A stretch of DNA of 64,000 nt from an uncultured Bifidobacteriaceae bacterium (GCA_964597445.1 CAZQXO010000002.1:10304-74303); one strand, 5' to 3'; counted from the stretch's first letter, positions 7,134 to 62,785 are shown. Notes: generated from the letters alone by a model not told the origin. Made by a program: numbers and translations.

Positions 7134-9680
7134 CTACTCCCCGCCCCCGCGCAGCGTCAGGATCAGGCCGGGGAGGTCGTCTGCCGTCACGAGCACCTCG
7201 CGTGCCTTGCTGCCCTCGCTGGGACCCACGACGCCGCGGCTCTCCATGAGGTCCATGAGTCGACCGGCCTTCGCGAACCCCACCCGGAGCTTGCGCTGCA
7301 GCATGGAGGTCGATCCGAACTGGGTCGACACGACGAGCTCGACGGCCTGGAGGAGCAGATCGAGGTCATCCCCGATCTCCTCGTCGATCTCCTTCGACGA
7401 GGAGGGTGCCGCCACGACCTCCTCCAGGTACTCAGCCTCACCCTGCTGGCGGCAGTGGGCGACCACGGCAGCGATCTCGGACTCGGACACGTACGCGCCC
7501 TGGATCCGCAGCGGCTTATTGGCACCCATCGGGAGGAAGAGCCCGTCCCCCTGCCCCACGAGCTTCTCCGCCCCGGGCTGGTCGAGGATGACCCGACTGT
7601 CGGCCAGGCTCGATGTGGCGAACGCGAGCCGACTCGGCACGTTGGCCTTGATCAGTCCGGTCACGACATCGACGCTCGGACGCTGGGTGGCCAGCACCAG
7701 GTGGATGCCAGCGGCGCGGGCCAGCTGCGTGATGCGGACGATGGCATCCTCGACATCACGAGGGGCCACCATCATGAGGTCCGCAAGCTCATCGACGATC
7801 ACGAGCAGGTAGGGATAGGGCTCGACGACGCGCTCGCTGCCCGGGAGCGGCGTGACCTTGCCACTTCGCACGGCCTTGTTGAACTCATCGATGTGCCGGA
7901 AGCCGAAATGCGCGAGGTCGTCGTACCGGCGATCCATCTCCTTGACGACCCACTGGAGGGCATCCGCTGCCTTCTTGGGGTTCGTGATGATCGGCGTGAT
8001 CAGGTGGGGTACCCCCTCGTACGCCGACAGCTCCACCCGCTTGGGATCGACGAGGATCATGCGCACCTCGTCGGGTGTCGCCCGGATGAGGATGCTCGTG
8101 ATGAGACTGTTGATGCAGCTGGACTTGCCAGCCCCCGTGGCACCCGCGACGAGCACGTGCGGCATGCGCGCGAGGTTGGCGATGACGAATCCGCCCTCGA
8201 CGTCCTTGCCCAGGGCAACGGCCATGGGGTGCTGATCGCTCGTGGCCGTGCTGCTGCGCAGGACGTCGCCCAGCGCAACAAGCTCGCGATCGGCGTTCGG
8301 GATCTCGACACCGATGGCCTTCTTGCCCGGAATCGGACTCAGAATGCGGACATCAGCACTCGCGACGGCGTAGGCGATGTTCTTGGACAGCGCCGTGACC
8401 CGCTCCACCTTGACGCTCGGACCCAGCTCGATCTCGTACCGCGTCACCGTGGGACCCCGCATGAAGCCGGTGACCTCGGCGTCGATGCCGAACTGCTCCA
8501 GCACCTCCGTCAGCGCCGCGACGACCTGGTCGTTCGAGCGGGTCGCCTTGCGATGAGCCGGTCCGGACGACAGAAGGTCCTTCTTGGGCAGTCGGTAGGC
8601 CGTGCGACGCGGGGCTCGGCGAGCGGGCGACGCCGACGGACTCTCGGCCGACACGATGACCGTGTCCTGCCGTGCAGGATGGCCCTGGGGCTCGACCGTC
8701 TCCTCCTCGCGGGGGGTCACGCCCGACATCAGCACCGCGGCGGGGCGCTCCTCGTCCTCGAGGATCACTGTGTGGTGCTCGACGAACACGGGCTCGCCCA
8801 TCTCGTCATCCTCGGCACCCGCAGGGGCCCCGAAGGGCTGCTCCCACGGTGCCTGCAGCCGCTCGCGTCCGTCCTCCTCGACGTCATCCCCCGCGGAGGT
8901 CGCCTCCTGCAACGTGCGGCCGTGGCCACGACGCAGGAGGCGACCCATCCACCGGAGGGACGTGACGATGCGCTCGCGCACCGTCTGGACGGGTGTGGCG
9001 GTCAGCACCATGAGACCGAAGGCGATAAGGACGACCAGACCAAGCGCTGCCACGATCGGGCCGACGGCCGAGACCACGGGCGCCGTGGCCAGCCAGCCGA
9101 CCACGCCGCCACCGGATGACATGGCCTCGGCGCCATCGCTCGGCGTGGCCGCCCCCATGACCAAGTGCCACAGGCCGATCACGCCGACGAGCACCGAGGC
9201 GGCACCGATGGCCAGACGCCCCGTCGTGGCGTTCTGGTCCGGGTGTCGCAGGAAGCGCCACGCCAGCCCGAGGCAGAGCAGCGGGGCGAGCCACGCCAGG
9301 GATCCGACGATGGCCGTGACCACCATGTCGGCCCACGCGAGGAACCAGCCGTCCACGCCGAACCAGGTGGCGGCCACCAGCGCGGCGGCCACCACGATCA
9401 GGGTCAGGCCGAGGCCATCGCGCCGGTGCGCCGGATCGAGATCCCGAGCGCCCCGGCCGAAGGCCCGAGCGCCCGAGCCCAGCAGGTGCGCGAGCGCCAG
9501 CCAGGCCTGCCGCAGCCCCCGGCCGAGCGCGGACACCCCGCGCACGAGAGGCCCCGGACCCGACGACCGGCTCCGGGACGACGAGGAACGCCCGGAAGGG
9601 CGCGTGCTCGCTCGGGATGACGCCGACCGCCGGGCGGCGGGTCGCTTGGGGCGCGCGGGGGCAGACGTGCGGGAAGCCAT
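7134..9680 (-). CDS. ftsK: DNA translocase FtsK
   Basis: N-terminal polytopic membrane domain, Pro/Ala-rich linker, motor domain with Walker A GATGAGKSS, and a C-terminal gamma wHTH (LLLQAVELVVSTQFGSTSMLQRKLRVGFAKAGRLMDLME). Confidence 0.95.
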   Translation of the reverse strand: MASRTSAPARPKRPAARRSASSRASTRPSGRSSSSRSRSSGPGPLVRGVSALGRGLRQAWLALAHLLGSGARAFGRGARDLDPAHRRDGLGLTLIVVAAALVAATWFGVDGWFLAWADMVVTAIVGSLAWLAPLLCLGLAWRFLRHPDQNATTGRLAIGAASVLVGVIGLWHLVMGAATPSDGAEAMSSGGGVVGWLATAPVVSAVGPIVAALGLVVLIAFGLMVLTATPVQTVRERIVTSLRWMGRLLRRGHGRTLQEATSAGDDVEEDGRERLQAPWEQPFGAPAGAEDDEMGEPVFVEHHTVILEDEERPAAVLMSGVTPREEETVEPQGHPARQDTVIVSAESPSASPARRAPRRTAYRLPKKDLLSSGPAHRKATRSNDQVVAALTEVLEQFGIDAEVTGFMRGPTVTRYEIELGPSVKVERVTALSKNIAYAVASADVRILSPIPGKKAIGVEIPNADRELVALGDVLRSSTATSDQHPMAVALGKDVEGGFVIANLARMPHVLVAGATGAGKSSCINSLITSILIRATPDEVRMILVDPKRVELSAYEGVPHLITPIITNPKKAADALQWVVKEMDRRYDDLAHFGFRHIDEFNKAVRSGKVTPLPGSERVVEPYPYLLVIVDELADLMMVAPRDVEDAIVRITQLARAAGIHLVLATQRPSVDVVTGLIKANVPSRLAFATSSLADSRVILDQPGAEKLVGQGDGLFLPMGANKPLRIQGAYVSESEIAAVVAHCRQQGEAEYLEEVVAAPSSSKEIDEEIGDDLDLLLQAVELVVSTQFGSTSMLQRKLRVGFAKAGRLMDLMESRGVVGPSEGSKAREVLVTADDLPGLILTLRGGGE

Positions 9681-9755: not shown

Positions 9756-9895
9756 CCCGGAGATCTCCCCCTCACCCCGAGCCTCCGCTGGCGGAGCCCC
9801 AGGCCTCCACCACGATCTCCCGGTGGCAGAGCCCTAGGCCTCCGCCACGATCCCCCGCTGGCAGAGCCCTAGGCCTCCACCACGACCGGAATGAT
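9756..9895. repeat. Tandem repeat, period 35 nt, three clear copies (9791-9825, 9826-9860, 9861-9895) plus a degenerate fourth; the last copy contains the 3' end and stop of rnj
   Basis: Aligned by eye: gcggagccccaggcctccaccacgatctcccggtg / gcagagccctaggcctccgccacgatcccccgctg / gcagagccctaggcctccaccacgaccggaatgat. Copies are contiguous, with no spacers. Confidence 0.75.
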
Positions 9896-11548
9896 CATGG
9901 GCCGGCGCCGATGGGCCGAGTTCGCCCACTTGCCGACCACTCGCCGGATGCGCTGCTGCAGCTCGTGCGTCTCGTCGGCTCCGTCATCCAGTGCCCGCTG
10001 GACCGCCTGCGTCACCTGTTCCACCAACTCCGCTGACAGCGCGTCATCCGGGCCGAATCCCCGAGCGTGGATCTCCGGTCCCGCGACGATGGCCCCGTCG
10101 ACGATGTCGACGGCGACGAAGACGGAGATGAAGCCCTCCTCGCCGAGCACGCGTCGATCCTTCAATGAGGTCTCTGTCACGTCACCGACCCCCGAGCCAT
10201 CGACGTAGACGAAACCGACGGGATGCTGACCGACGACCTCGAGTCGCCCGTCGACCAGGTCCATGACAGTGCCGTCCTCGGCGATCGTGATGCGCTCGCG
10301 CGGGATGCCGACACTGGAGGCCACCTCGGCATTGGCTCTCATGTGCCGCCATTCGCCGTGGATGGGCAGGACGTTGCGAGGCTTGACGATGTTGTAGACG
10401 TAGCGCAGCTCACCGGCTGCCGCATGGCCGGAGACATGGACAAGTGCGTTGCCCTTGTGCACGACATGAGCACCCAGTCTCGTCAGCCCGTTGATCACAC
10501 GGAAGACGGCGTTCTCGTTCCCGGGAATCAGGGACGACGCCAGGACGACAGTGTCGCTCGGGCCCACACTGATCGGATGGTCTCGGTTGGCGATGCGTGA
10601 CAGCACCGCCATGGGCTCCCCCTGCGACCCCGTGCAGATCAGCACCGCCTCGTCGTCAGGAAGGTTCGGGAGATCATCGGAGGCCACGAGCATGCCCCCC
10701 GGAATCGTCAGGTACCCGAGGTCTCGAGCGATGCCCATGTTGCGAACCATGGAACGTCCCACGAAGGCGATCTTGCGTCCGTGAAGCGCGGCCATGTCGA
10801 TGATCTGCTGGATGCGATGGACGTGGGATGCGAAGGACGCCACGATGATGCGCCCCTCAGCGCGGAGGAACACGGCATCCAGCACCGGAACGATGTCACG
10901 CTCACTGTCAACGAACCCGGGCACCTCCGCATTGGTGCTGTCGACCATGAGCAGATCGACGCCCTCGTCACCGAGCCGTGCGAAACCGTTGAGATCGGTC
11001 ACGCGCCCGTCGAGAGGAAGTTGGTCCATCTTGAAGTCACCTGTGTGCAGCACGAGTCCGCCCGGGGTGCGGATGGCGAGCGCCATGGCATCGGGGATCG
11101 AGTGATTCACCGCGAGGAACTCGACGGTGAAGGGGCCCCAGGTCGCCGTCTCGCCGTCGGTGACCGTCCGGAGATCCGGGGAGATCCTGTGCTCGCGCAT
11201 CTTCGCCTCGACCAGGGCGAGGGTCAGAGTCGAACCCACGACGGGGATGTCCGCTCGCAGGCGGAGCAGGTAGGGCAGAGCACCGATGTGGTCCTCGTGG
11301 CCATGAGTCAGGACGACGGCGACGATGTCGTCCAGGCGATCCTTGATGGGACCGAAGTCGGGGAGGATGAGATCGACGCCCGGTTGGTTCTCCTCGGGGA
11401 ACAGCACCCCGCAGTCGACGATGAGCAGACGCCCATCGCACTCGAAGACCGTCATGTTGCGACCGATCTCACCGAGCCCACCAAGGGCATAGATGCGAAG
11501 TGCTCCTTCGCGGAGCTCGGGAGGGGCAGGCAGCGTGACGTGACTCAT
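9869..11548 (-). CDS. rnj: Ribonuclease J
   Basis: Metallo-beta-lactamase HGHEDHIGALPYLL, beta-CASP region and RNase J C-terminal domain; 559 aa; conserved dapA-rnj-ftsK synteny. Confidence 0.95.
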   Translation of the reverse strand: MSHVTLPAPPELREGALRIYALGGLGEIGRNMTVFECDGRLLIVDCGVLFPEENQPGVDLILPDFGPIKDRLDDIVAVVLTHGHEDHIGALPYLLRLRADIPVVGSTLTLALVEAKMREHRISPDLRTVTDGETATWGPFTVEFLAVNHSIPDAMALAIRTPGGLVLHTGDFKMDQLPLDGRVTDLNGFARLGDEGVDLLMVDSTNAEVPGFVDSERDIVPVLDAVFLRAEGRIIVASFASHVHRIQQIIDMAALHGRKIAFVGRSMVRNMGIARDLGYLTIPGGMLVASDDLPNLPDDEAVLICTGSQGEPMAVLSRIANRDHPISVGPSDTVVLASSLIPGNENAVFRVINGLTRLGAHVVHKGNALVHVSGHAAAGELRYVYNIVKPRNVLPIHGEWRHMRANAEVASSVGIPRERITIAEDGTVMDLVDGRLEVVGQHPVGFVYVDGSGVGDVTETSLKDRRVLGEEGFISVFVAVDIVDGAIVAGPEIHARGFGPDDALSAELVEQVTQAVQRALDDGADETHELQQRIRRVVGKWANSAHRRRPMIIPVVVEA

Positions 11549-23361: not shown

Positions 23362-23598
23362 GGGTGCCTCCTGTTCACGAGAGGGGAACAGGGACGTCAC
23401 GCTGGGCGACCGGTGGCGGTCTTCGATCGAGGCCCACGGGCGCATCACGATGCTCCCGGAGGTCACTACCGAGGACCGACGACTGGCGCGCTCGTTGCGA
23501 CGCCCCGGATCCGGTACGAGCCTGATTGTCGGCTCCTGGTTCTTGGCTATGGAGTTGTGGTGCGGTCAGGCCCACCGGAGTCGGCCCGACCGTCGGAA
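23362..23598 (-). promoter_or_regulatory. rpsO-pnp intergenic leader; candidate Actino-pnp-type autoregulatory RNA, including a 9-bp hairpin at 23564-23591
   Basis: A 237-nt untranslated gap sits directly 5' of pnp. The hairpin (gene strand) is GGTCGGGCC-loop-GGGCCTGACC, just after the rpsO stop. A conserved structured pnp leader is known in Actinobacteria (Rfam Actino-pnp). I cannot run a covariance model. Confidence 0.4.
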
Positions 23599-26245: not shown

Positions 26246-29032
26246 TCAGACCTTCCTGGGCTTCTCACGCATCTCGAAGGTCTCGATCACGTCGTCGACC
26301 TTGAGGTCCTGGTAGTTGCCGAGGTTGATGCCGCACTCGAAGCCCTCACGCACCTCCGTGACATCGTCCTTGAAGCGACGCAGGCCCGCGAGAGTGAGGT
26401 CGTCAGCGACCACCGCACCGTCGCGGATGAGCCGGGCCTTCGCATTGCGACGCACCTCACCCGACTTCACGATGCAGCCGGCGATCGTGCCGAACTTCGA
26501 CGACTTGAACACCTCACGCACCTCGGCAGTACCGAGCTGCACCTCTTCGAACTCCGGCTTCAGCATGCCGCGCAGGGCCGCCTCGACCTCCTCGATCGCC
26601 TGGTAGATGACGCTGTAGTAGCGCACATCCACGCCCTCCTCGGCGGCCAGCTCGGCGACCTTGCCCTCTGGGCGGACGTTGAATCCGATGATGACGGCCT
26701 TGGACGCACTGGCCAGGGTCACATCGTTCTTGTTGATGGCACCGACGCCACGATGGATGACGCGCAGGTTGACCTCGTCGCCGACGTCGATCTTGAGCAG
26801 GGCATCCTCGAGAGCCTCGACGGAGCCGGAGACGTCGCCCTTGATGATCAGCGTGAGCTCGGCGACCTCTCCCTTCTCGAGGGACTCCAGGAAGTCCTCG
26901 AGGGACCGCTTCACCCGGTTCCGCGCCAGCAGCGCATTGCGCTCCCGCGCCTGACGGGTCTGGGCGATCTGGCGAGCGACCCGATCCTCAGCCACGACCA
27001 TGAAACTGTCACCAGCACCCGGCACCGAGGTGAGACCGAGCACCTGCACCGGCATGGACGGACCCGCCTCCTCGACCGGGTTGCCGTCATCGTCGAGCAT
27101 GGCGCGCACACGACCGAAGGCATCGCCCGCCACGATCGAGTCGCCAGGACGCAGCGTGCCACGCTGGACGAGCACCGTCGCCACGGGGCCACGACCGCGG
27201 TCGAGGTGGGCCTCGATGGCCACACCCTGGGCGTCCTGGTCCGGGTTCGCCCGCAGATCGAGAGCCGCGTCCGCCGTGAGGAGGACCGCCTCAAGCAGCT
27301 CCTCCAGGCCCGTGCCCTTCGTTGCCGAGACATCGACGAACATCGTGTCGCCGCCGTACTCCTCCGCCACGAGCCCGTACTCCGTGAGCTGACCACGCAC
27401 CTTCTGCGGGTCTGCGCCCTCCTTGTCGATCTTGTTGACCGCCACCACAATCGGCACGCCTGCTGCCTGAGCATGGTTCAGCGCCTCGATGGTCTGAGGC
27501 TTCACGCCGTCATCCGCGGCCACCACGAGGATCGAGATGTCGGTCACCTGCGCACCTCGAGCGCGCATCGCCGTGAAGGCCTCGTGTCCCGGGGTGTCGA
27601 TGAAGGTGATCCGACGCTCCACGCCCTCGGACGTGCGCGTCCCGACCTGGTAGGCCCCGATGTGCTGGGTGATCCCGCCAGCCTCGCCGCTGACGACGTT
27701 CGTCGAACGGATCGCATCGAGGAGCTTCGTCTTGCCATGGTCGACGTGACCCATGACCGTGACGACCGGCGGGCGGATCTCGAGATCCTCGTCCTCGCCC
27801 TCGTGCTCTCCGAACTCCAGATCGAAGGACTCCAGCAGTTCGCGGTCCTCGTCCTCGGGCGAGACGACCTGAACGTCGTAGTTGAGTTCGCTGCCCAGCA
27901 GGCGAAGCGTGTCATCGTCGATGGACTGCGTTGCGGTGACCATCTCACCCAGGCCGATCAGCACCTTGACGAGGTCCGCCGGAAGAGCGTCGATGCGCTC
28001 AGCGAAATCGGTCAGGCTGGCACCGCGCGGAAGGCGCACGGTCTCGCCACTGCCCCGCTTGATGCGAACGCCATCCATGATGGGCGCCTGCATGTTGTCG
28101 AACTCCTGGCGCTTCGCGCGCTTGGACTTCCGTCCTCGCGACGGCCGACCGCCGGGCTTGCCGAAGGCGCCCGCCGTCGTTCCACGACCGCCCGGGCCAC
28201 CGGGACGACCGCCGGGACCACCGGGACGACCGCCGGGACCACCGGGCGCGCCCGGACCGCCCGGGCCTGCCGGGCCGCGACCGTAGCCACCGGGCCCACC
28301 CGGGCCACCGGGACGGGCACCCGGGCCACCGGGACCGCGACCGTAGCCACCGGGCCCACCCGGTCCACCGGGTCGAGCACCCGGGCCACCGGGACGGGCC
28401 CCTGGACCTGCGGGACCGCCCGGGCGTGCGGGGCGTGGAGGCATCATGCCGGGATTCGGGCGCGGCGCCCCCGGCACCGCGGGAGCCGGGCGACCCATGC
28501 CCGTGCCAGGGCCGCTGCTGAAGGGGTTGTTGCCCGGACGGGGTCCGGCCGGGCGGCCCATGCCGGTGCCGGTGCCGAACGGATTGTTGCCCGGACGGGG
28601 TCCGGCCGGGCGGGGTGCCGGCCGCGGAGCGGACTCGGCGCCCGGGGCAGCTGCGGGAGCCTCCGCCGTCGCAGCGTCGGTCGCCTCGGCTGCGGGAGCG
28701 GCAGCAGGGGGCGTCGGAGGGACGGGGACGGCGGCGGGTGCGGGAGCAGGAACGGGAGCAGGCTCCGCCGCCACCGGTGGGGCGGGAGTCTCCTCCGGAG
28801 CGCTCGGCACGGTGGTCGTCTTCGCGGCGGTGGCCTTCTTGGCTGCCGTCTTCTTCGCCGCGGGCTTGGCCTCCGCCGGGGGCATGGCCTCGCGGAGTCG
28901 TCGCGCGACGGGCGCCTCGACCGTGGACGAGGCGGACTTCACGAACTCGCCCATGTCCTGCAGTTTGGCGAGGACATCCTTGCTGGTTACCCCGAGCTCC
29001 TTGGCGAGCTCATGGACCCGAACCTTCGACAC
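26246..29032 (-). CDS. infB: Translation initiation factor IF-2
   Basis: [16 protein letters not shown]-terminus, long Pro/Gly/Ala-rich disordered region, and a G domain [17 protein letters not shown]...DTPGHEAF...NKID. Confidence 0.97.
28190..28400. repeat. In-frame tandem repeats inside infB (60-nt unit x2 at 28277-28336 / 28337-28396 with 3 mismatches, plus shorter ~21-nt repeats at ~28195-28250) encoding [20 protein letters not shown] repeats
   Basis: Units aligned by eye on the plus strand. The protein shows [20 protein letters not shown] twice, followed by [18 protein letters not shown]. Confidence 0.75.
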
Positions 29033-53387: not shown

Positions 53388-53581
53388 GGGCTCGGTGCTC
53401 CGTCCCTTCGCTTCGGCTGCTGCTGGGCCGTGTCGGTCCGACCGGCGCCTTCTCCGCGCCGCGGGATTGCCCGGCGTGCGGTGCTTGCCATCGAACCACG
53501 CGAATCGCCTGCCAGCAAGGAATTCGCCGAGGATTCCCGCGACGTCAGTCCGCGAGGCGACGGATTGCGTGGCAGGAGGGG

Positions 53582-54976
53582 TCAGACTCCCCTCAGCGTG
53601 GGACCGGTGGCCGCCGCGGTCGCGAGCGCGTCGATGACATGCGACAGGAGGGTGGTGTCGTGCTCATCGAGGATCCCGGTCGTGACGCGGACGTGCCCGG
53701 ACCCCGCCTCGGGTCGCACCATGAAGGGAGAGCCGGGTGACACCCGAACCCCGAGCGCGGCCAGCGTGATCAGCGCCGAGCGCTCGTCCGCCACGCGGAC
53801 CCAAGCATTGATCCCATCGCCCGTCGTGCTCTCCACGCCCCTCCCGGCCAGGCCCGCCCGGAGTGCCAGTCCGCGCATGGCATAGGCGCTCCGGGCCCGC
53901 CCGACAGCGGCGATGGCAGCCGGATCCGTCAGCAGCTCGAGCAGGACCGCCTGCAGGAGACGGCTGGTCCAGCCCGGTCCCAGCATGCGCCGCGCGACGA
54001 GTGGATCCAGCACCTCCGCGGCTCCTGCGACAGCGGCGATGCGGAGGTCCGGCCCATGGGACTTCGAGTAGCTGCGGATGTGCACGGTGCGATCCGGCAG
54101 GTACCGGCCCATGCTGACGTCCTCGCCAGTGGCGATCGTGCCCGAGTGATCGTCCTCGATCACCCAGGCCGAGGACCCGGCCATGGCCTCGGCCAGGTCC
54201 GATGCTCGGATCAGGCTCATGCTGATCCCGGTGGGGTTCTGGGCTCGCGGCTGGAGGAACACCGCCACGGGTTCCGCGAGAAGCGCCTCGCGGAGGCTGC
54301 TGACGACCACGCCCTCGGCATCCATCTCGAGGGGCAGGATCTCTGCGCCGGCGCGCTCGAGCAGGTCGATGAGAGGCGGGAACCCCGGATTCTCCATGGC
54401 GACGCGATCCCCGAGGCGCACGAGCTGGTCGACGACGCGGGAGAGGGCATCGAGCGCGCCGTCGACCACGGTCAGGCGCTGGGGCGGGAACGGCCAGTCG
54501 GCTCGCAGCACCTCCTCGAGGGCGGGCAGGACGGGATCGTCGAGATAGCTCGTGGTCCAGTCGGCCGAGCCGGCGAGCACGCGTTCGACCGCCTCGCGCA
54601 GAGGAGGGAGCAGGGAGGGATCCGGAGTGCCGGACGACAGGTTGATCCCCTCGGACATCGGGGCGCCGCCGATCCCCAGGTAGCGGATCGGCCGGGTCGG
54701 CTCCGCTGACTCCAGGACGAAGGTTCCCGCTCGACCGCGCGCCTGGATGGCCCCCACCGCGGCCAGCGCCTGCCAGGCCTCGCTGACCGTCGCCGGACTC
54801 ACCGCGAGTTCGCGCGCGAGGACCCGGACGGTGGGCAGCCGGTCACCCGTGGTCAGGTGACCGGCACGGATCAGTCGATGGACGCCGGCAGCGATGCCCC
54901 GAGGGGAGCGGTCGCTGACGGCGGCCGCCACCACATCGAGCAGGGCACTGTCGTCCGACACCGCATCCAGGCTCAT
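53582..54976 (-). CDS. MocR/GabR-type regulator (GntR wHTH fused to a fold-type I aminotransferase-like domain)
   Basis: The N-terminal GDRLPTVRVLARELAVSPATVSEAWQAL is a GntR HTH. The remaining ~350 aa are AAT-like (...YSKSHGPDLRIAAV... PLP-Lys region). I chose the ATG at 54976 (MSLDAV). Confidence 0.85.
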   Translation of the reverse strand: MSLDAVSDDSALLDVVAAAVSDRSPRGIAAGVHRLIRAGHLTTGDRLPTVRVLARELAVSPATVSEAWQALAAVGAIQARGRAGTFVLESAEPTRPIRYLGIGGAPMSEGINLSSGTPDPSLLPPLREAVERVLAGSADWTTSYLDDPVLPALEEVLRADWPFPPQRLTVVDGALDALSRVVDQLVRLGDRVAMENPGFPPLIDLLERAGAEILPLEMDAEGVVVSSLREALLAEPVAVFLQPRAQNPTGISMSLIRASDLAEAMAGSSAWVIEDDHSGTIATGEDVSMGRYLPDRTVHIRSYSKSHGPDLRIAAVAGAAEVLDPLVARRMLGPGWTSRLLQAVLLELLTDPAAIAAVGRARSAYAMRGLALRAGLAGRGVESTTGDGINAWVRVADERSALITLAALGVRVSPGSPFMVRPEAGSGHVRVTTGILDEHDTTLLSHVIDALATAAATGPTLRGV

Positions 54977-55008
54977 CGCACCTCCCCCGCACGCTCGGGC
55001 ACCTGACC

Positions 55009-55042
55009 GTCTCTTTGTTGAAAAGCCGTTGTAACAGAGATC
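55009..55042. promoter_or_regulatory. Locally AT-rich imperfect palindrome in the MocR / pyrimidine-cluster divergent intergenic region (candidate operator/promoter)
   Basis: gtctctttgttgaaaagccgttgtaacagagatc: the arms tctct...agaga and ttgtt/aaca are roughly symmetric. It stands out against ~70% GC surroundings and lies between divergent starts at 54976 and 55117. Confidence 0.2.
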
Positions 55043-55116
55043 CGATTGTCTAGAGTCCGGAATCACACATCCCGCACCGGTTTCGATGATCGCATCATCG
55101 CCACGAGGAGGAATCC

Positions 55117-55953
55117 ATGACCGTCATCCGTGCAGCCCTCGTCCAGACGGACTGGACCGGCGACAAGGAGTCCATGATCGTCAAGCACGAGGACTACGCA
55201 CGGGAGGCCGCCGCGCAGGGGGCTCAGGTCATCTGCTTCCAGGAGCTCTTCTACGGCCCCTACTTCTGCCAGGTGCAGGACAAGCAGTTCTACGAGTACG
55301 CCGAGGCGATCCCCGGCCCGATCACGGAGCGGTTCCAGGCACTGGCCAAGGAACTCGGCATGGTCATGGTGCTGCCCATGTACGAGGAGGAGCAGCCCGG
55401 CGTCCTCTACAACACGGCTGCCGTCATCGATGCGGACGGCAGCTACCTCGGCAAGTACCGCAAGCAGCACATCCCGCACGTCGCCGGATTCTGGGAGAAG
55501 TTCTACTTCCGTCCCGGCAACGGCGGCTACCCGGTCTTCGACACGGCCGTGGGCAAGATCGGCGTGTACATCTGCTACGACCGGCACTTCCCCGAGGGCT
55601 GGCGTGCCCTGGGCCTGAACGGGGCCCAAATCGTCTTCAATCCCTCGGCCACGTCACGCGGCCTGTCCCAGTACCTCTGGAGCATCGAGCAGCCTGCCGC
55701 AGCCGTGGCCAACGAGTACTTCGTGGGTGCCATCAACCGCGTCGGTGTCGAGCCCCTCGGCGACGATGACTTCTACGGCCAGTCCTACTTCGTCGATCCC
55801 GAGGGCAGCTACGTCGGCGACAAGGGCGATCCGTACGCCTCCGAGCTCATCGTCCGGGACCTGAACATGGACCTCCTGACTGAGGTGCGCAACCGCTGGC
55901 AGTTCTACCGGGACCGCCGCCCGGACGCCTACGACGATCTCGTCCGCCCCTAG
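55117..55953 (+). CDS. Carbon-nitrogen hydrolase, beta-ureidopropionase (N-carbamoyl-beta-alanine amidohydrolase) type
   Basis: Nitrilase-superfamily Glu-Lys-Cys triad contexts VICFQELF, YRKQHIP and VYICYDRHFPE, plus EKFYFRPGN. Directly upstream of dihydropyrimidinase. GAGGAGG SD before the ATG. Confidence 0.85.
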   Translation: MTVIRAALVQTDWTGDKESMIVKHEDYAREAAAQGAQVICFQELFYGPYFCQVQDKQFYEYAEAIPGPITERFQALAKELGMVMVLPMYEEEQPGVLYNTAAVIDADGSYLGKYRKQHIPHVAGFWEKFYFRPGNGGYPVFDTAVGKIGVYICYDRHFPEGWRALGLNGAQIVFNPSATSRGLSQYLWSIEQPAAAVANEYFVGAINRVGVEPLGDDDFYGQSYFVDPEGSYVGDKGDPYASELIVRDLNMDLLTEVRNRWQFYRDRRPDAYDDLVRP

Positions 55954-55991
55954 GCAGCACGAACCCCGCACGCCACTCGAAGGGATCAGTC

Positions 55992-57410
55992 ATGACCATC
56001 CTCATCACCAACGGCACCGTGATCTCGGCTCAGGGCAGCACCCGTGCCGACGTGCTGGTCGACGGCGAGACCATCGCTGCCGTCCTCGCTCCGGGGGACA
56101 CGTCGCTCGGAGCCGATCTCGCCCGCAGCGCGGATCGCGTGATCGACGCAACCGGCAAGTACGTCGTGCCCGGCGGCGTCGACGGGCACACGCACATGGA
56201 GATGCCCTTCGGTGGCACGGTCGCCTCCGACACCTTCGAGACCGGAACCCGGGCCGCCGCCTGGGGTGGCACGACCACGATCATCGACTTCGCCGTCCAG
56301 AAGCAGGGCGAGCGCGTGCAGGACTGCCTCGCAGAGTGGCACCGGAAGGCCGCCGGGAACTGCGCCATCGACTACGGCTTCCACCAGGTCATCGGCGGCG
56401 TCGACAGCGATTCCCTCAAGGCGATGGACGAGCTCGTCGACGAGGGGGTGACGACCTTCAAGCTCTTCATGGCCTACCCGGGGGTGTTCCTGAGCTCGGA
56501 CGGCCAGATCCTGCAGGCCATGCAGCAGGCGGCGAGCAACGGCTCGATGATCATGATGCACGCCGAGAACGGCAGCGCCATCGACGTCCTCGTGGCTCAG
56601 GCCCTCGCCGAGGGCAAGACCGATCCCAAGTACCACTCGCTCACCCGACCCTGGGAGACGGAGGCGGAGGCGGTCAACCGTGCCGTGATGCTCGCCCGCA
56701 TGACCGGGGCGCCCCTCTACATCGTCCACATGTCGGCCAAGCAGGCAGTGGAGGTCCTGCAGAAGCACCGCGACGAGGGCTGGAACGTCTTCGGCGAGAC
56801 CTGCCCGCAGTACCTGTACCTCTCGGTGGAGGAGCACCTCGCGCAGGCGGGATTCGAGGGCGCCAAGTGGGTCTGCTCGACACCCCTGCGCGAGCGGGCC
56901 GAGCACCATCAGGACGAGCTGTGGCGCTACCTGCGCACGAACGACCTGTCCGTCATCAGCACCGACCACTGCCCCTTCTGCTTCAAGGAGCAGAAGGAGA
57001 TGGGGCTCGGCGACTTCTCGAGGATCCCGAACGGCATCGGCGGAGTCGAGCATCGGATGGACCTCATCTACCAGGGCGTCGTCGAGGGGAAGATCTCCCG
57101 CGAGCGCTGGGTCGAGCTCTGCTCCACCACGCCGGCACGCATGTTCGGTCTCTACGGCCGCAAGGGCGACATTCGACCCGGGTTCGATGCCGACATCGTC
57201 ATCTACGACCCGGCAGGACGCACCGAGATCGGCGTCGGGAAGACCCACCACATGAACATGGATCACTCCGCCTACGAGGGGTTCGTCATCGACGGCCATG
57301 TGGACACCGTGCTGTCGCGCGGCAAGGTGGTCGTCGACGACAACCAGTACCTCGGGACCAAGGGCGACGGCCAGTTCCTCAAGCGCGGACTGTCCCAGTA
57401 CCTGCTCTGA
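55992..57410 (+). CDS. hydA: Dihydropyrimidinase / D-hydantoinase
   Basis: Cyclic amidohydrolase pattern: VVPGGVDGHTHMEMPF (HxH), TTFKLFMAY (carboxylated Lys), MIMMHAENG, YIVHMS, ISTDHCPF. Confidence 0.92.
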   Translation: MTILITNGTVISAQGSTRADVLVDGETIAAVLAPGDTSLGADLARSADRVIDATGKYVVPGGVDGHTHMEMPFGGTVASDTFETGTRAAAWGGTTTIIDFAVQKQGERVQDCLAEWHRKAAGNCAIDYGFHQVIGGVDSDSLKAMDELVDEGVTTFKLFMAYPGVFLSSDGQILQAMQQAASNGSMIMMHAENGSAIDVLVAQALAEGKTDPKYHSLTRPWETEAEAVNRAVMLARMTGAPLYIVHMSAKQAVEVLQKHRDEGWNVFGETCPQYLYLSVEEHLAQAGFEGAKWVCSTPLRERAEHHQDELWRYLRTNDLSVISTDHCPFCFKEQKEMGLGDFSRIPNGIGGVEHRMDLIYQGVVEGKISRERWVELCSTTPARMFGLYGRKGDIRPGFDADIVIYDPAGRTEIGVGKTHHMNMDHSAYEGFVIDGHVDTVLSRGKVVVDDNQYLGTKGDGQFLKRGLSQYLL

Positions 57411-57478
57411 CCCTCGCTCTCTCGCTCTCGACAGAGACCCAGGCCCCGCCCCAGCACCACGACGAATCAGGAGCACCC

Positions 57479-59092
57479 GTGCGCACCATCGACCACTGGA
57501 TCAAGGGATCGACCGTCCCCTCGACATCGGGGCGCAGCGGCCCCGTCTACGACCCCGCGACCGGCCAGCAGCAGGCCGTGGTGGGCCTCGCCAGTGCCGA
57601 GGAGGTCGACGACGCCGTCGCCGCCGCGGCCACCGCCTTCCGCACCTGGCGGTCCGCATCGCTCTCGAAGCGCGCCGAGGTGATGTTCCGGTTCCATGAG
57701 CTCGTCGTCCAGCATCGCGACGAGATCGCCGCGCTGCTCTCGTCCGAGCACGGCAAGGTGCCCAGTGACGCGGCAGGCGAGCTCGCCCGGGGTATCGAGA
57801 ACATCGAGTTCGCCTGCGGCATCCCCCAGCTCATGAAGGGAGGCTTCAGCGAGCAGGCCTCGACTGGCGTGGACGTGTACTCCATCCGGCAGCCCCTGGG
57901 CGTGGTCGCCGGCATCACGCCGTTCAACTTCCCCGCCATGGTCCCCATGTGGATGTTCGCGAACGCCATCGCCTGCGGAAACACGTTCGTGCTCAAGCCG
58001 AGCGAGAAGGACCCGTCCGTGGCGATCCTCCTCGCGGATCTGCTCAAGCAGGCGGGACTGCCCGACGGGGTCTTCAACGTCGTCCAGGGCGACAAGGTCG
58101 CTGTCGATCGCATCCTCGAGCATCCGGACATCGCCGCCGTCAGCTTCGTCGGATCAACGCCGATCGCGAAGTACATCTACTCGACGGGCACGGCGAACGG
58201 CAAGCGCGTCCAGGCGCTCGGCGGCGCCAAGAACCACATGGTCGTGCTTCCGGATGCCGACATCGACATGGCTGCCGATGCAGCTGTCAGTGCCGGGTAC
58301 GGCTCCGCCGGTGAGCGGTGCATGGCGATCTCGGTCGTCGTGGCCGTGGGCGGGGTCGGGGGGAGGCACCGGGGGGGGGTCGCCCCCCGCCACCCCCCCC
58401 CGCAGGTGGGGGCCCGCCCCCCAGACACCGGGGGGGTGGGGGGGTTCTTGGTCTTGTGGGTGGGGGGGGGGGGGGGGGGGGGGGCCCTCCGCGGGGCGGC
58501 GCCCCCCGCCGCCCGACTCCCCCAGCTCAAGGTGGGTCCCGGCACCGATCCGACGGCGGAGATGGGTCCTCTCATCACGCGCGAGCACCGAGACAAGGTC
58601 GCCTCGTACATCGCCGGCGCACCGGATGAGGGAGCCCGGGTCGTCGTCGACGGCCGCGACAACAACCTGCCTGCCGACGGCTTCTTCCTCGCTCCGTCAC
58701 TGCTCGACGACGTCAAGCCCGGCATGGCCGCCTACGACGACGAGATCTTCGGGCCCGTGCTCTCCGTGATCCGGGTCAACACCTACGAGGAGGCGGTCGA
58801 CCTGATCAACCGCCACCAGTACGGCAACGGCACGGCCATCTTCACGCGCGACGGCGGAGCCGCCCGGCAGTTCCAGTTCGACATCCAGGTCGGCATGGTC
58901 GGGATCAACGTGCCGATCCCTGTTCCGGTTGCCTACTACAGCTTCGGAGGCTGGAAGGCATCGATCTTCGGTGACTCGAACATCTACGGACCCGCCGGCA
59001 TCGACTTCTACACGCGGACAAAGACGGTCACGTCACGCTGGCCGGATCCGTCGACCTCCTCGGTCGACCTCGGCTTCCCCCGGACTCGCTGA
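57479..59092 (+). CDS. mmsA: CoA-acylating methylmalonate/malonate-semialdehyde dehydrogenase, interrupted in-frame by an anomalous G/C-homopolymer segment
   Basis: VRTIDHWIKG..., ITPFNFPAMVPMWMF, FVLKPSEKDP, ALGGAKNH, catalytic SAGERCMAIS, and C-terminal INVPIPVPVAYYSFGGWKASIFGD...VTSRWP are all MmsA hallmarks. GTG start at 57479 with AGGAG upstream. The product is ~537 aa, versus the ~500 aa I expect for the family. Confidence 0.85.
   Translation: MRTIDHWIKGSTVPSTSGRSGPVYDPATGQQQAVVGLASAEEVDDAVAAAATAFRTWRSASLSKRAEVMFRFHELVVQHRDEIAALLSSEHGKVPSDAAGELARGIENIEFACGIPQLMKGGFSEQASTGVDVYSIRQPLGVVAGITPFNFPAMVPMWMFANAIACGNTFVLKPSEKDPSVAILLADLLKQAGLPDGVFNVVQGDKVAVDRILEHPDIAAVSFVGSTPIAKYIYSTGTANGKRVQALGGAKNHMVVLPDADIDMAADAAVSAGYGSAGERCMAISVVVAVGGVGGRHRGGVAPRHPPPQVGARPPDTGGVGGFLVLWVGGGGGGGALRGAAPPAARLPQLKVGPGTDPTAEMGPLITREHRDKVASYIAGAPDEGARVVVDGRDNNLPADGFFLAPSLLDDVKPGMAAYDDEIFGPVLSVIRVNTYEEAVDLINRHQYGNGTAIFTRDGGAARQFQFDIQVGMVGINVPIPVPVAYYSFGGWKASIFGDSNIYGPAGIDFYTRTKTVTSRWPDPSTSSVDLGFPRTR
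58355..58512 (+). other. Anomalous ~160-nt low-complexity G/C-homopolymer block inside mmsA (G9, C6, C9, G7, G7, G23 runs)
   Basis: Read directly: G9 at 58371-58379, C9 at 58393-58401, G7+G7 at 58430-58444, G23 at 58462-58484. Only ~20 A/T by hand count. It encodes ...GGRHRGGVAPRHPPPQVGARPPDTGGVGGFLVLWVGGGGGGGALRGAAPPAA..., which replaces the short conserved linker before LKVGPGTDP. Confidence 0.9.
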
Positions 59093-59121
59093 CCCCTCAC
59101 CCCTCCACCGGAAGGCAGCAC

Positions 59122-60153
59122 ATGGATATCGGCGTCGTTCTGCAGTGCACACCACCGGCGGCCCGGGTGGTCGACCTCGCCAAGCGGTCGGAGACCTACG
59201 GCTTCTCCTATGTGTGGACATTCGACTCCCACATCCTGTGGGAGGAGCCGTACGTGATCTACAGCAAGATCCTCGATGAGACGCGCAAGGTCATCGTCGG
59301 ACCGATGGTGACCAACCCGGCGACCCGGGACATCACCGTGACGGCCTCCGTGTTCGCCACGCTCAACGAGATGTACGGCAACCGGACGGTCATCGGCATC
59401 GGCCGAGGTGACTCTGCTGTCCGCGTCACCAACGGCAAGCCCGTCAGCGTCGCGGAGCTGCGCGAGGCCGTCGTCGACATCAAGGGCCTGGTCAACGGCG
59501 AGGCGATCGAGTACAAGGGCAACCACCTGCGCCTGCCCTGGGCGGGGGCCTCGCGCACCGACGTCTGGGTGGCGGCCTACGGGCCGAAGGTGCTCGCCCT
59601 CACCGGCGAGGTGGGCGACGGGTTCATCCTCCAGCTGGCGGATCCCTCCATCGCCGCGTGGACCATCCAGGCGGTGCGTGATGCCGCCTCGGCCGCCGGC
59701 CGGGACCCGGACGAGGTCTACATCTGCGTCGCAGCCCCCGCCTACGTCACCGACGGCTCCCCCGAGGCCCTCGCCCATGCCCGTGACCAGCTGAGGTGGT
59801 TCGGCGGCATGGTCGGCAACCACGTCGCCGACATCGTCGCGCGCTACGGCGAGAACGGCGGGGCCGTGCCCCAAGCGCTGACCGACTACATCAAGAACCG
59901 CCAGGGGTACGACTACAACGAGCACGGGCAGGCCGGGAACAGCCACACCGACTTCGTGCCCGACGACATCGTCGACCGGTTCTGCATCATCGGACCCCCG
60001 GAGGAGCACATCAGGCGCCTCGAGGAGCTGAAGGCCCTGGGCGTCGACCAGTTCGCGGTGTACCTCCAGCACGACGACAAGGACCACACCCTCGCCGCAT
60101 ACGGGGAGAAGATCATCCCGGCCGTGCAGGAGCACCTGAAGGCCAAGGAGTGA
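59122..60153 (+). CDS. Luciferase-like monooxygenase (LLM) class oxidoreductase, F420/flavin-dependent, Mer-related
   Basis: MDIGVVLQCTPPAARVVDLAKRSETYGFSYVWTFDSHILWEEPYV...GPMVTNPATRD...IGIGRGDSAVR is the TIM-barrel LLM pattern closest to methylene-H4MPT-reductase-like F420 enzymes; 343 aa. Confidence 0.82.
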   Translation: MDIGVVLQCTPPAARVVDLAKRSETYGFSYVWTFDSHILWEEPYVIYSKILDETRKVIVGPMVTNPATRDITVTASVFATLNEMYGNRTVIGIGRGDSAVRVTNGKPVSVAELREAVVDIKGLVNGEAIEYKGNHLRLPWAGASRTDVWVAAYGPKVLALTGEVGDGFILQLADPSIAAWTIQAVRDAASAAGRDPDEVYICVAAPAYVTDGSPEALAHARDQLRWFGGMVGNHVADIVARYGENGGAVPQALTDYIKNRQGYDYNEHGQAGNSHTDFVPDDIVDRFCIIGPPEEHIRRLEELKALGVDQFAVYLQHDDKDHTLAAYGEKIIPAVQEHLKAKE

Positions 60154-60186
60154 CCGCGTGGGTCACGACTTGATATCGGTTGACGT

Positions 60187-61161
60187 ATGCGCAGCAGGCA
60201 CGACATGACGCTGGGGGATCCTTCGCACGTGTCGAACCCCGCCGGACCGGTCGTCACGTCCGAGGAATCCGCGGCGGCTCGGCCCCGTCCCACCGGCACG
60301 ATCCGTCGACGCCTGCGACGAGGTGCCATCGGACTGCTGTGGGCCTTGGCCGGAGTGGTGCTCGTGGTGCTCATGTGGGAGCTCGTCAAGCTGCTCGGGA
60401 CCGCCATCGAGCTCCCCTTCCGCACGAACGACACGGCCATGCCCCATGTCTGGACGATGGTGCAGGGCTTCGGCCAGCCGGAGGTGCGGGGGTCGGACAC
60501 GACTGTCCTGCAGGCGGTTGCCCTCGCCACGCTGTACTCGCTCCTGATCGCATTCGGGGGGTTCCTGATCGGGGTCTCGATCGGCCTCCTCCTCGCGATC
60601 GTCATGCAGCGTTTCGCCTTCATGGAGCGCGGTCTCCTGCCGTTCGTGATCGCGTCCCAGACCGTCCCGCTCATCGCACTGGCCCCGCTCATCGTCGGGA
60701 TCGGCAATCGCATCAGCATCGGGCCCTTCCAGTGGGGCACGACCCAGTCGGTCATGTTCATCGCGGCCTACCTGGCCTTCTTCCCGATGAGCGTGGGCGC
60801 ACTACGCGGACTCAAGGCCCCCTCTGCGACGGCACTCGAACTCATGCGGTCCTACGCCGCAACGCCGCGCCAGATGCTCTGGAAGCTCCGCTTCCCCTCC
60901 TCCGTGCCGTACCTCGTCCCGGCCTTGAAGGTCTCCGCGGCAGCGTCCGTCGTCGGCACGGTCGTGGCGGAGATCTCCACCGGCGTGCGCGGCGGCATCG
61001 GGCGCCTCATCGTCGAGTACGCCCGAGAGGCCACGGCACAGCCCGCCAAGGTCTATGTCGCCGTGTTCGGCGCCATCCTCCTCGGCCTCATCGCCGCGGG
61101 AATCGTCGCGCTGTTCGACACCTACATCACCCGCAATCTCCCCAAGGAAGGGTCGGCATGA
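60187..61161 (+). CDS. ABC transporter permease (NitT/TauT family)
   Basis: Polytopic BPD_transp_1 protein with an EAA-like loop (ALELMRSYAATPRQMLWKLRFPSSVPYL). ATGA overlap with the ATPase gene. Confidence 0.85.
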   Translation: MRSRHDMTLGDPSHVSNPAGPVVTSEESAAARPRPTGTIRRRLRRGAIGLLWALAGVVLVVLMWELVKLLGTAIELPFRTNDTAMPHVWTMVQGFGQPEVRGSDTTVLQAVALATLYSLLIAFGGFLIGVSIGLLLAIVMQRFAFMERGLLPFVIASQTVPLIALAPLIVGIGNRISIGPFQWGTTQSVMFIAAYLAFFPMSVGALRGLKAPSATALELMRSYAATPRQMLWKLRFPSSVPYLVPALKVSAAASVVGTVVAEISTGVRGGIGRLIVEYAREATAQPAKVYVAVFGAILLGLIAAGIVALFDTYITRNLPKEGSA

Positions 61162-61994
61162 GCATGACCTCGCCCACCGGACACCCGGCCGTCAGCGCCA
61201 CGGGGGTCTGGAAGATCTTCAACGAGGGTCAGCCCAATGAGGTCACCGCCCTGCAGGACGTCACGATCGACGTCGCCGAGGGCGAGTTCGTCTCGCTCAT
61301 CGGCCCATCTGGCTGTGGCAAGAGCACCCTGCTCCGGGTCATCGCCGACCTCACCCATGCGACGCGTGGCGACATGCAGGTGGCGGGACTCTCGGCCGCT
61401 GATGCGCGCCAGCAGCAGAAGTACGGCATGGCCTTCCAGCAGGCCGCGCTCTTCGACTGGCGCACGGTGCGCCGCAACGTCGAACTCCCGCTGGAGCTCC
61501 AGGGCTGGGACAAGTCCCGTCGATCGGCGAGGGCACTGGAACTGCTCGAGATGGTGCAGCTCGCGGACTTCGCCGACCACCGCCCCTGGGAGCTCTCCGG
61601 CGGCATGCAGCAGCGGGTCGCCATCGCACGGTCCCTGGCCGTCGATCCCCCGCTCCTGCTCATGGACGAGCCCTTCGGTGCCCTGGACGAGATGACCCGG
61701 GAGCGCATGCAGAACGAGCTCCTGAGGATCCGTCGGGAGACCGGCAAGAGCATCATCTTCGTGACCCACTCGATTCCCGAGGCGGTCTACCTCTCCGACC
61801 GGGTCGTGGTGATGTCTCCCCGTCCCGGTCGCATCACGGACATCGTCCCGATCACTCTCGGCGATCGGAACGAGGACACCCGCGAGGCCGAGGCGTTCTA
61901 CGCCGGCGTGACGGCCGTGCGGGAGGCTCTCCGGGGCCATCCCCACAGGGGTTCGTCCGGCAGCGACGTTCGGGCTCGGGTGGGCGAGGTCTGA
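61158..61994 (+). CDS. ABC transporter ATP-binding protein (NitT/TauT family)
   Basis: Walker A GPSGCGKST, signature LSGGMQQRVAIARSL, Walker B LLLMDEPFGALD. Only the C-terminal 278 codons of track ORF 60180-61994 are used; the start is the ATG at 61158. Confidence 0.92.
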   Translation: MSMTSPTGHPAVSATGVWKIFNEGQPNEVTALQDVTIDVAEGEFVSLIGPSGCGKSTLLRVIADLTHATRGDMQVAGLSAADARQQQKYGMAFQQAALFDWRTVRRNVELPLELQGWDKSRRSARALELLEMVQLADFADHRPWELSGGMQQRVAIARSLAVDPPLLLMDEPFGALDEMTRERMQNELLRIRRETGKSIIFVTHSIPEAVYLSDRVVVMSPRPGRITDIVPITLGDRNEDTREAEAFYAGVTAVREALRGHPHRGSSGSDVRARVGEV

Positions 61995-61996
61995 AC

Positions 61997-62767
61997 GTGA
62001 CCCGGCGCATCAACCTCATCTGGCCACCCATCCTTGTGGGTGTCCTGTTCCTGGGTGCCTGGCAGCTGCTCGTGGTGAGTCGCGACATCCAGCCGTACCT
62101 GCTGCCTGCGCCCAGCCTCATCGGGGAGAACTTCTTCGGGAACATGGACCTGATGTGGTCCACGGCCATCTACACCGCGGTCACGGCGCTGCTCGGCCTC
62201 GTCTTCGGCACGGCTGCAGGACTCCTGGCTGCCTTCCTCGCCCAGAGATTCATCGTGGTCAACAACATGGTCACCCCCCTGGCCGCCGGACTCGCCGCCG
62301 TGCCCATCGTCGCCCTCACGCCGATCCTCAACAACATGTTCGACATCACCAGTCGAACGCCCAGGGTGCTGGTGACCGCGATCATCGTCTTCTTCCCCGT
62401 GTTCGTGAACGTCACGCGGGGCCTGGTCCAGGTGCAGCCGGTGCAGCTCGAACTCATGCGCTCGATGAGCGCCCAGCCTCGGACGGTCCTTCGGCTGCTG
62501 CGCATCCCGAACGCCATCCCCTTCTTCTTCACGGCCATGAAGATCACCGCACCCATGGCCGTGATCGCCGCCCTCGTTGCCGAGTACTTCGGAGGGCCGC
62601 AACTCGGACTTGGCAGCCGGATCGCGTCATCGGCTGCCAACACTGCCTACGGCCGAGCGTGGGCATACGTCGTCGCAGCGATCATCACGGGACTGCTGTT
62701 CTACCTGGTAGTCCTGCTGGCCGAGCGCTGGGCGGCACCGTGGACGGGTCGATCACGTTCGGCCTGA
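61997..62767 (+). CDS. ABC transporter permease (NitT/TauT family), second subunit
   Basis: Polytopic, with an EAA-like loop LELMRSMSAQPRTVLRLLRIPNAIPFF. It starts 3 nt after the ATPase stop. Confidence 0.85.
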   Translation: MTRRINLIWPPILVGVLFLGAWQLLVVSRDIQPYLLPAPSLIGENFFGNMDLMWSTAIYTAVTALLGLVFGTAAGLLAAFLAQRFIVVNNMVTPLAAGLAAVPIVALTPILNNMFDITSRTPRVLVTAIIVFFPVFVNVTRGLVQVQPVQLELMRSMSAQPRTVLRLLRIPNAIPFFFTAMKITAPMAVIAALVAEYFGGPQLGLGSRIASSAANTAYGRAWAYVVAAIITGLLFYLVVLLAERWAAPWTGRSRSA

Positions 62768-62785
62768 CAACCTAGAGGAGGAAGT

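Follow-up and report, generated by a model that had tools for sequence, protein, structure and literature searches.

A G/C-homopolymer block inside an mmsA gene is very probably a sequencing or assembly artefact

In the 64,000-nucleotide stretch of DNA analysed here (the window), a gene for a methylmalonate-semialdehyde dehydrogenase, mmsA, is interrupted shortly after the codon for its catalytic cysteine by a block of almost pure G and C. The question that this locus raises is whether the block belongs to the chromosome or arose during sequencing and assembly. A real block of this kind would give a housekeeping catabolic gene a hypermutable tract of unusual length and complexity. The first-pass annotation had ranked a sequencing or assembly artefact highest, and had named a contingency tract and a G-quadruplex/i-motif insertion as alternatives. 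In the present study, we found that the block very probably is such an artefact, in which two low-quality tails were joined head-to-head and produced a pseudo-duplication of 126 nt. Judged from the sequence of the window and its relatives, the block does not appear to be a real feature. The coordinates of the gene and of the parts of the block are given in Table 1.

Table 1. Parts of mmsA and of the G/C block, in window coordinates
Feature	Position	Strand	Remarks
mmsA, CoA-acylating methylmalonate/malonate-semialdehyde dehydrogenase	57479..59092	+	537 codons as assembled; translation and homology
Clean 5' part of mmsA, including Cys281 (GERCMA)	57479..58357	+	Collinear with L081/L082 up to 58359
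Copy 1, substitution-degraded in-register copy of native sequence	58358..58461	+	Gene coordinates 880-983; ungapped match to L082/L081
G23, pure poly-G end of copy 1	58462..58484	+	Gene coordinates 984-1006 overwritten
Degraded head of copy 2, restart of native linker D-R-L-V-E-A-I-A-A	58485..58512	+	Gene coordinates 880-907
Clean 3' part of mmsA, copy 2 continued in native frame	58513..59092	+	Collinearity with L081/L082
G-runs of the block	G6 58358-58363, G9 58371-58379, G5 58408-58412	+	Run scan
C-runs of the block	C6 58383-58388, C9 58393-58401, C6 58417-58422, C6 58502-58507	+	Run scan
Later G-runs of the block	G7 58430-58436, G7 58438-58444, G23 58462-58484	+	Run scan

The mmsA gene and the size of the excess

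The open reading frame of mmsA starts with GTG at 57479 and ends at 59092. Its product shared 94.5-95.6% amino acid identity with homologs of 495 residues, which their sources name methylmalonate-semialdehyde dehydrogenase, and PF00171 was present in the 120 best database homologs, which their sources name MMSDH. Among known structures, PDB 4zz7 matched the product with an E-value of 3.4e-181, and the HMMER match was split into two stretches at the block; further structure matches were 9q0d, 4e4g, 5tjr and 1t90. The catalytic cysteine is Cys281 in the motif GSAGERCMA and was invariant in the alignment of homologs. The block begins at residue 294-295 of the product, which corrects the distance of about 10 residues past the catalytic cysteine given previously.

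The genomic surroundings of the gene were compared with two syntenic loci, both taken with their flanks, namely L081 (ENA contig NODE_1, 630 kb, coverage 4.4) and L082 (from JGI). The L081 contig, from the closest relative, has only about 4.4x coverage, which shows that assemblies of such populations usually rest on thin data. Both loci were about 95% identical to the window at the amino acid level and 87-89% identical at the nucleotide level. The window, L081 and L082 share one gene order, which runs from a MocR-type regulator through a CN-hydrolase, a dihydropyrimidinase, mmsA and a luciferase-like oxidoreductase to an ABC transporter, and mmsA is an ordinary MmsA in a conserved cluster for pyrimidine/beta-amino-acid catabolism. 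By BLAST, 11.5 kb of the window was collinear with both loci. Collinearity was broken only once, where window positions 58359 to 58507/8 stood against 22 nt in L081 and L082, and from 58507/58508 it held as far as the window's end. At 58348-58360 a few wobble positions had changed towards G, and these may already be part of the degraded zone.

The size of the excess was obtained from the proteins and from the DNA. Among the 125 closest full-length homologs, 123 were exactly 495 residues long, and the other two, of 501 and 578 residues, were normally spaced here. GERCM and EMGPL lay 41 apart in all 125 of these proteins, 40-42 apart in 73 loci of diverse phyla, and 83 apart in the window. The net excess was exactly 126 nt, or 42 codons, both against the syntenic L081 and L082 and against L001, and the native gene would probably comprise 495 codons. 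The first-pass annotation had called for the linker to be measured against orthologs. The enlargement it expected was borne out, since 51 residues separate VAVGGVG from RLPQLKVGPG in the window, against 9 (DRLVEAIAA) in close relatives. Its sizes were off: about 58 extra codons had been proposed where the alignment gave 42, and a native linker of 15-20 residues where close relatives have 9. It had also stated that the flanks remain in register and that the net change is a multiple of three, in agreement with the excess of exactly 126 nt. The anomalous stretch covers about 155 nt (58358-58512) and exceeds the 126-nt excess, since the corruption extends into some 28 nt of native linker on its right side.

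Outside 58358-58512, mmsA is a typical and well-conserved member of the MmsA/IolA dehydrogenases (4zz7, 1t90; PF00171). As assembled, however, it departs from this family after the strand that carries the catalytic cysteine, in having 42 additional codons and in the corruption of 5-6 linker residues. The spacing and sequence from this strand to LKVGPG/EMGPL that are typical of the family were lost in the window, where DRLVEAIAA is replaced. We attribute this abnormal spacing to the probable artefact and not to the enzyme.

None of the 125 homologous proteins and none of the 82 loci had extra sequence or a run of at least 15 at the site. The comparison rests on relatives at 87-89% nucleotide and about 95% amino acid identity, and no genome of the same species is among them. 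A window-specific 26-mer from the left flank had 0 matches in a scan of metagenomes, an exact look-up returned no identical proteins on record for MmsA and the neighbouring dihydropyrimidinase, and the 90% clusters of the best homologs held no conspecific protein, with a maximum of 95.6% identity. The contig scan gave, among the at least 600 matches listed, only relatives at up to 75% amino acid identity.

Composition and coding constraint of the block

The composition of the block was then set against that of its genome and relatives. The region 58355-58512 had a G+C content of 86.7%, with A or T at just 21 of 158 nt, and the whole 64-kb window had 68.5%. A six-frame translation of this region contained no stop codon, as had been noted earlier, and the reading frame of mmsA was kept throughout. 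The translated block was rich in Gly, Pro and Arg. With six G-runs of at least 5 and four C-runs of at least 6 within 158 nt, the block has the make-up of a G-quadruplex/i-motif former, a statement about its composition only. The approximately 160-nt in-frame homopolymer block described in the first-pass annotation was thus reproduced in its runs, composition and frame.

The only homopolymer of at least 7 in the 64-kb window outside the block was C7 at 52665. Across 82 related loci (574 kb of DNA), G/C runs did not exceed 8 and no homopolymer of at least 15 was found, so that the earlier description of G23 as extremely unusual was well founded. Because of this scarcity of runs in the window and in the 82 related loci, the block lies far beyond what such a genome normally holds. 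The most complex 23-mer of the block occurred once within the window and had 0 matches in 241 M metagenome records, a collection from which the source contig is evidently absent as well.

The pattern of substitutions also differed between the block and its flanks. In comparison with L082, 10.5% of sites differed in the clean flanks, and 131 of the 150 differences (87%) fell at codon position 3. Differences concentrated at this position are what purifying selection on a functional gene leaves behind. Of the sites in copy 1, 50% differed from L082, with 19, 17 and 16 differences at codon positions 1, 2 and 3; in the head of copy 2, 54% differed, with 4, 6 and 5. The linker segment hardly varies among the closest homologs; in the window its corruption produced the changes L>G, V>A, E>A, A>P and I>P.

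As a control for naturally GC-rich coding DNA, we used the N-terminal part of infB, encoding IF-2 (26246..29032, minus strand), which is Gly/Pro-rich and of low complexity, with 81.6% GC over 170 codons. In this region GGG served for 4 of 63 Gly codons and homopolymers reached at most 5, against GGG for all 17 Gly codons of the block. The genome thus encodes Gly/Pro-rich protein without homopolymers. From codon usage and the spread of differences over codon positions, the block bears no sign of coding constraint.

Anatomy of the block

After ...GTC GG, close relatives read (T/C)GATCG(C/T)CTGGT(C/G)GAGGCGAT(C/T)GC(T/G)GCCCGACT(C/T)CCCCAGTTGAAGGTGGG(T/C)CCCGGCACCGA..., and the block was aligned with this continuation. 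Without gaps and in register, 58358-58445 matched L082 at 48 of 88 positions and L081 at 47 of 88. The in-register position was fixed a priori as the same gene coordinate, and it ranked first among 22,802 positions on both strands in each of the two loci; the null expectation for an 88-nt stretch was 27.7 ± 4.1, which gives a z of about 4.9. For the longer stretch 58358-58461, the match to L082 (52/104) was the best of about 22,800 positions, and the match to L081 (51/104) was tied for best with one other position. Islands of matching sequence stood at the correct offset (TCGC, CCCG, CCCCC, AGGTGGG, CC.G, ACCG and TGGG). An independent, blind repeat search returned a direct repeat of 40 nt with a spacing of exactly 126, between 58381-58420 and 58507-58546.

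A gapped alignment of the block to the window's own continuation also supported the copy, its score being equalled by 1 in 3000 random segments. Other gapped alignments gave a weaker picture. Gapped local alignment of the block to native sequence scored 30, against 20.8 ± 2.3 for shuffles, which is a moderate signal. Gapped scores against relatives were 5-10, compared with -5.6 ± 5.1, and the in-register position was not the top one. Only when the part before G23 was compared in register and without gaps did a decisive signal emerge, and adding G23 diluted it. The reverse strand of the block showed no homology to the gene above shuffles.

Copy 1 decays along its length. Counted per 15 nt, its identity to native sequence ran 12, 8, 8, 10, 10, 6, 8, 4 and 4, and then 2 of 10 inside G23. 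Among 70 mismatches, 42 were changes to G and 16 were changes to C. Native bases were kept unequally, with A retained at 2 of 22 positions, T at 5 of 19 and G at 30 of 41. G23 itself matched native sequence at 6 of 23 positions, which is about chance for an all-G string. Copy 1 also holds C-runs (C6, C9 and C6) and a T-rich piece, GGTTCTTGGTCTTGTGGG.

At 58485 the native sequence restarts. The head of copy 2, 58485-58512, reads CCCTCCGCGGGGCGGCGCCCCCCGCCGC and lies in register with GTGATCGCCTGGTCGAGGCGATCGCTGC of the relatives, with 15 differences in 28 positions from either locus. Thirteen positions differed from both L081 and L082, and 10 of these 13 were changes to C, equivalent to G on the minus strand. 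Changes from AT to GC numbered 8 and changes from GC to AT numbered 0.

Taken together, the substitutions lie in register without indels, the errors rise along the plus strand to pure G, and the tail on the opposite strand is C-biased. The anomaly reads as a 126-nt pseudo-tandem-duplication, in which a decay along the plus strand abuts a mirror-image tail at 58484|58485. On these alignments, the block is a corrupted copy of the adjoining native sequence and not foreign DNA.

Origin of the block and comparison with known systems

The artefact reading is favoured because an in-register copy, a gradient of decay, a bias to G followed by a bias to C, missing coding constraint and absence from relatives occur together; the in-register degraded copy, the lack of constraint and the absence from relatives support the explanation that the first-pass annotation had placed highest. 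In the mechanism that we propose, a plus-strand tail would depart from good sequence at about 58358, run through the true next 126 nt or so with a growing number of miscalls, mostly to G, and end in pure poly-G at 58462-58484. A tail from the opposite strand would contribute its degraded 3' end, which appears on the plus strand as the C-biased corruption of the linker at 58485-58512, since a reverse-strand read with a poly-G defect is C-biased on the plus strand. The true 126-nt overlap of the two tails would have become unrecognisable, so that they were placed end to end. These tails may have been the 3' ends of reads on opposite strands, or contig ends extended by such reads, and the joining step may have been made by an assembler, a scaffolder, a gap-closer or read-pair joining. 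The platform would have been two-colour Illumina, with signal loss called as G, and local coverage was presumably low. In two-colour Illumina chemistry, progressive signal loss leads to G-miscalls and to poly-G tails of reads (fastp paper, PMC6129281). A general literature search on poly-G assembly artefacts gave nothing specific.

Under this reading, the true gene would most likely be a 495-codon mmsA with the linker ...VGGVGDRLVEAIAARLPQLKVGPG..., and the native linker is expected to read GGVGDRLVEAIAARLPQ, encoded by the 27 nt GAT CGC CTG GTG GAG GCC ATC GCC GCC or synonymous codons. The divisibility of the excess by three would be a coincidence, with a chance of 1 in 3. A model in which all errors run to G leaves the C-runs and GGTTCTTGGTCTTGTGGG of copy 1 partly unexplained; these parts point to phasing-type errors, in which neighbouring bases smear, or to a mixed consensus, more than to signal loss alone. 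Degraded tips of this kind are usually clipped by well-behaved assemblers, and this counts against the artefact reading.

Other readings were weighed on the same evidence. A real in-frame tandem duplication of 126 nt in mmsA, with only the base calls of copy 1 and the junction corrupted, for example by assembly or polishing, would account for a period of exactly 126 nt, for the frame and for the homology that copy 1 recognisably shares with copy 2 and with native sequence. It is nevertheless unnecessary, as tails placed end to end should themselves produce a plus-strand decay to poly-G followed directly by a C-biased head. No relative examined carries a duplication at the site, and 42 residues starting 13 past the catalytic cysteine would disrupt the helix after the catalytic loop, at the place where HMMER splits the match to 4zz7. 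We therefore regard this duplication as improbable.

A genuine G/C insertion, through which mmsA is switched or crippled by a slippage-prone contingency tract or by a G-quadruplex/i-motif element, would fit the presence of the runs in the deposited sequence, the open frame, and the proneness of G23 and the other G-runs to slippage and G4 formation. What would be the insert, however, is a degraded copy of adjacent native sequence rather than a distinct element, and it is missing from 125 close homologs, 82 loci and the metagenome contigs. Strong purifying selection acts on the remainder of the gene, yet the adjoining native linker is altered non-synonymously, and the codon usage is unlike that of the genome's own Gly/Pro-rich coding DNA. 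Known contingency tracts also look different from a mixed cluster of G and C runs within the gene for a catabolic enzyme in an environmental actinobacterium. The two alternatives of the first-pass annotation consequently found no support: a tract at the site occurred in none of the 125 proteins or 82 loci while the adjacent 130 nt or so differed at 50-54% of sites, and the G-quadruplex/i-motif motif was missing from all relatives. A genuine insertion is very improbable. Equally slight is the likelihood of a recent in-frame 126-nt duplication of which one copy was driven to G/C homopolymers (G23, G9, C9 and others), giving this core catabolic enzyme a physically real, hypermutable contingency tract able to form a G-quadruplex/i-motif.

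It is scarcely credible that the block is a small mobile or repetitive element, for instance a GC-rich palindrome of the MITE/REP type, or that the protein acquired a natural Gly/Pro loop of low complexity. The many imperfect inverted repeats inside the block recall such an element, but they are merely G-runs facing C-runs; the 23-mer has no second copy in the window and none in the metagenome collection, and apart from the 126-nt self-homology there are no terminal repeats or target duplication. The mobile or palindromic element was rejected on the opposed runs and the missing second copy. The translation rich in Gly, Pro and Arg would suit a loop, and an evolved Gly/Pro loop was rejected on the use of GGG (17/17 against 4/63 in the infB control).

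The main relevance of the artefact reading is quality control of the deposited record. As deposited, the record describes an MmsA of 537 residues with a Gly/Pro/Arg-rich insert of 42 residues, placed 13 residues past the catalytic cysteine, and databases could inherit from it a spurious variant, a spurious loop labelled low-complexity or 'disordered', or a locus wrongly listed as phase-variable or G4-forming. The locus also offers a diagnostic for other homopolymer blocks that requires no reads: an in-register degraded copy of the sequence that follows, together with a poly-G decay and a C-biased restart. Further signs are the loss of codon-position bias and the use of GGG for all Gly codons. 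This diagnostic is cheap and applicable in genome scans.

The block can finally be compared with three known systems. Phase-variable poly-G contingency tracts occur in genes of Neisseria, Haemophilus and Campylobacter. Known contingency tracts consist of one run each, about 8-15 nt long and close to the 5' end or promoter of a surface or restriction-modification gene in a host-adapted bacterium. The block resembles these loci in having a long poly-G, G23, inside an open reading frame, but it differs from them in comprising ten clustered runs of G or C, in its place in the middle of the gene for a conserved catabolic enzyme, in the degraded duplicate that flanks it, and in that no homolog has a tract. 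Contig or scaffold joins in which a true overlap goes undetected lead to junction duplications. The locus is alike in that 126 nt of true sequence would be doubled about a join, with the sequence outside it collinear with relatives; it is unlike in that the presumed junction at 58484/58485 bears no Ns. From the poly-G read tails of NextSeq and NovaSeq, the block departs in that its tails would be embedded mid-contig inside a gene rather than trimmed from reads, and in the errors towards C and the T-rich piece of copy 1. With these read tails (PMC6129281), the block shares the drift to G with a pure poly-G end, substitutions that lie in register and are the only changes, and a C-biased tail on the opposite strand as their mirror image.

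Upstream edge of the degraded zone in mmsA

The methylmalonate-semialdehyde dehydrogenase gene mmsA was compared with L081 and L082, the loci of two close syntenic relatives. It was observed that three wobble positions (58348, 58354, and 58360) differed from both relatives, and all three changes were to G. The first non-synonymous corruption was found at 58362, and the three G-ward wobble changes fell upstream of it, within 12 nt. These differences suggested that the degraded zone may begin about 10 nt upstream of copy 1, the substitution-degraded, in-register copy of native mmsA sequence at 58358..58461.

Low-complexity, repeat and RNA elements

The N-terminal region of IF-2 is naturally Gly/Pro/Arg-rich and is encoded by 9-, 21-, and 60-nt tandem repeats (28184-28625); the N-terminal region was taken as the internal control, from which the coding of low-complexity Gly/Pro stretches in this genome was judged. 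The Actino-pnp RNA was the sole Rfam match at the gathering level in the 64-kb window. It is presumably the leader of a polynucleotide phosphorylase gene, a placement that fits the nusA-infB region nearby. The 35-nt repeat array lies, with slight overlap, between the minus-strand ORFs 7134..9680 and 9869..11548; an Rfam search of the array gave no match, and no copies of its unit were found elsewhere in the 64-kb window.

Features in the window
Feature	Coordinates	Strand	Remarks
35-nt tandem repeat, unit CACCACGATCCCCCGCTGGCAGAGCCCTAGGCCTC	9773-9885	+	3.2 units, ~85% identity
Actino-pnp RNA (RF01688)	23415-23480	-	Rfam, 60.9 bits vs gathering score 47.7
infB (IF-2)	26246-29032	-
nusA	29497-30522	-	adjoins infB
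Conserved gene cluster around mmsA	~52450-64000	+	also in L081 and L082
MocR-type GntR/aminotransferase regulator			mmsA cluster
CN-hydrolase, likely beta-ureidopropionase			mmsA cluster
Dihydropyrimidinase	55992..57410	+	mmsA cluster
Luciferase-like (LLM) oxidoreductase	59122..60153	+	mmsA cluster
NMT1-type ABC transporter			mmsA cluster

Relatives and the mmsA gene cluster

Among the matches listed from a 15-billion-protein collection, no protein was more than 95.6% identical, and thus the species of the window appears to be otherwise unsampled. The nearest named relatives among the matches listed were MAGs labelled Candidatus Nanopelagicales or Actinomycetota. In the cluster around mmsA, the MocR-type regulator is followed by the CN-hydrolase, dihydropyrimidinase, mmsA, the LLM oxidoreductase, and the NMT1-type ABC transporter. 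Synteny of this cluster was complete in both L081 and L082, at 87-90% nucleotide identity, and the cluster looks like a locus for reductive pyrimidine or beta-amino-acid catabolism.
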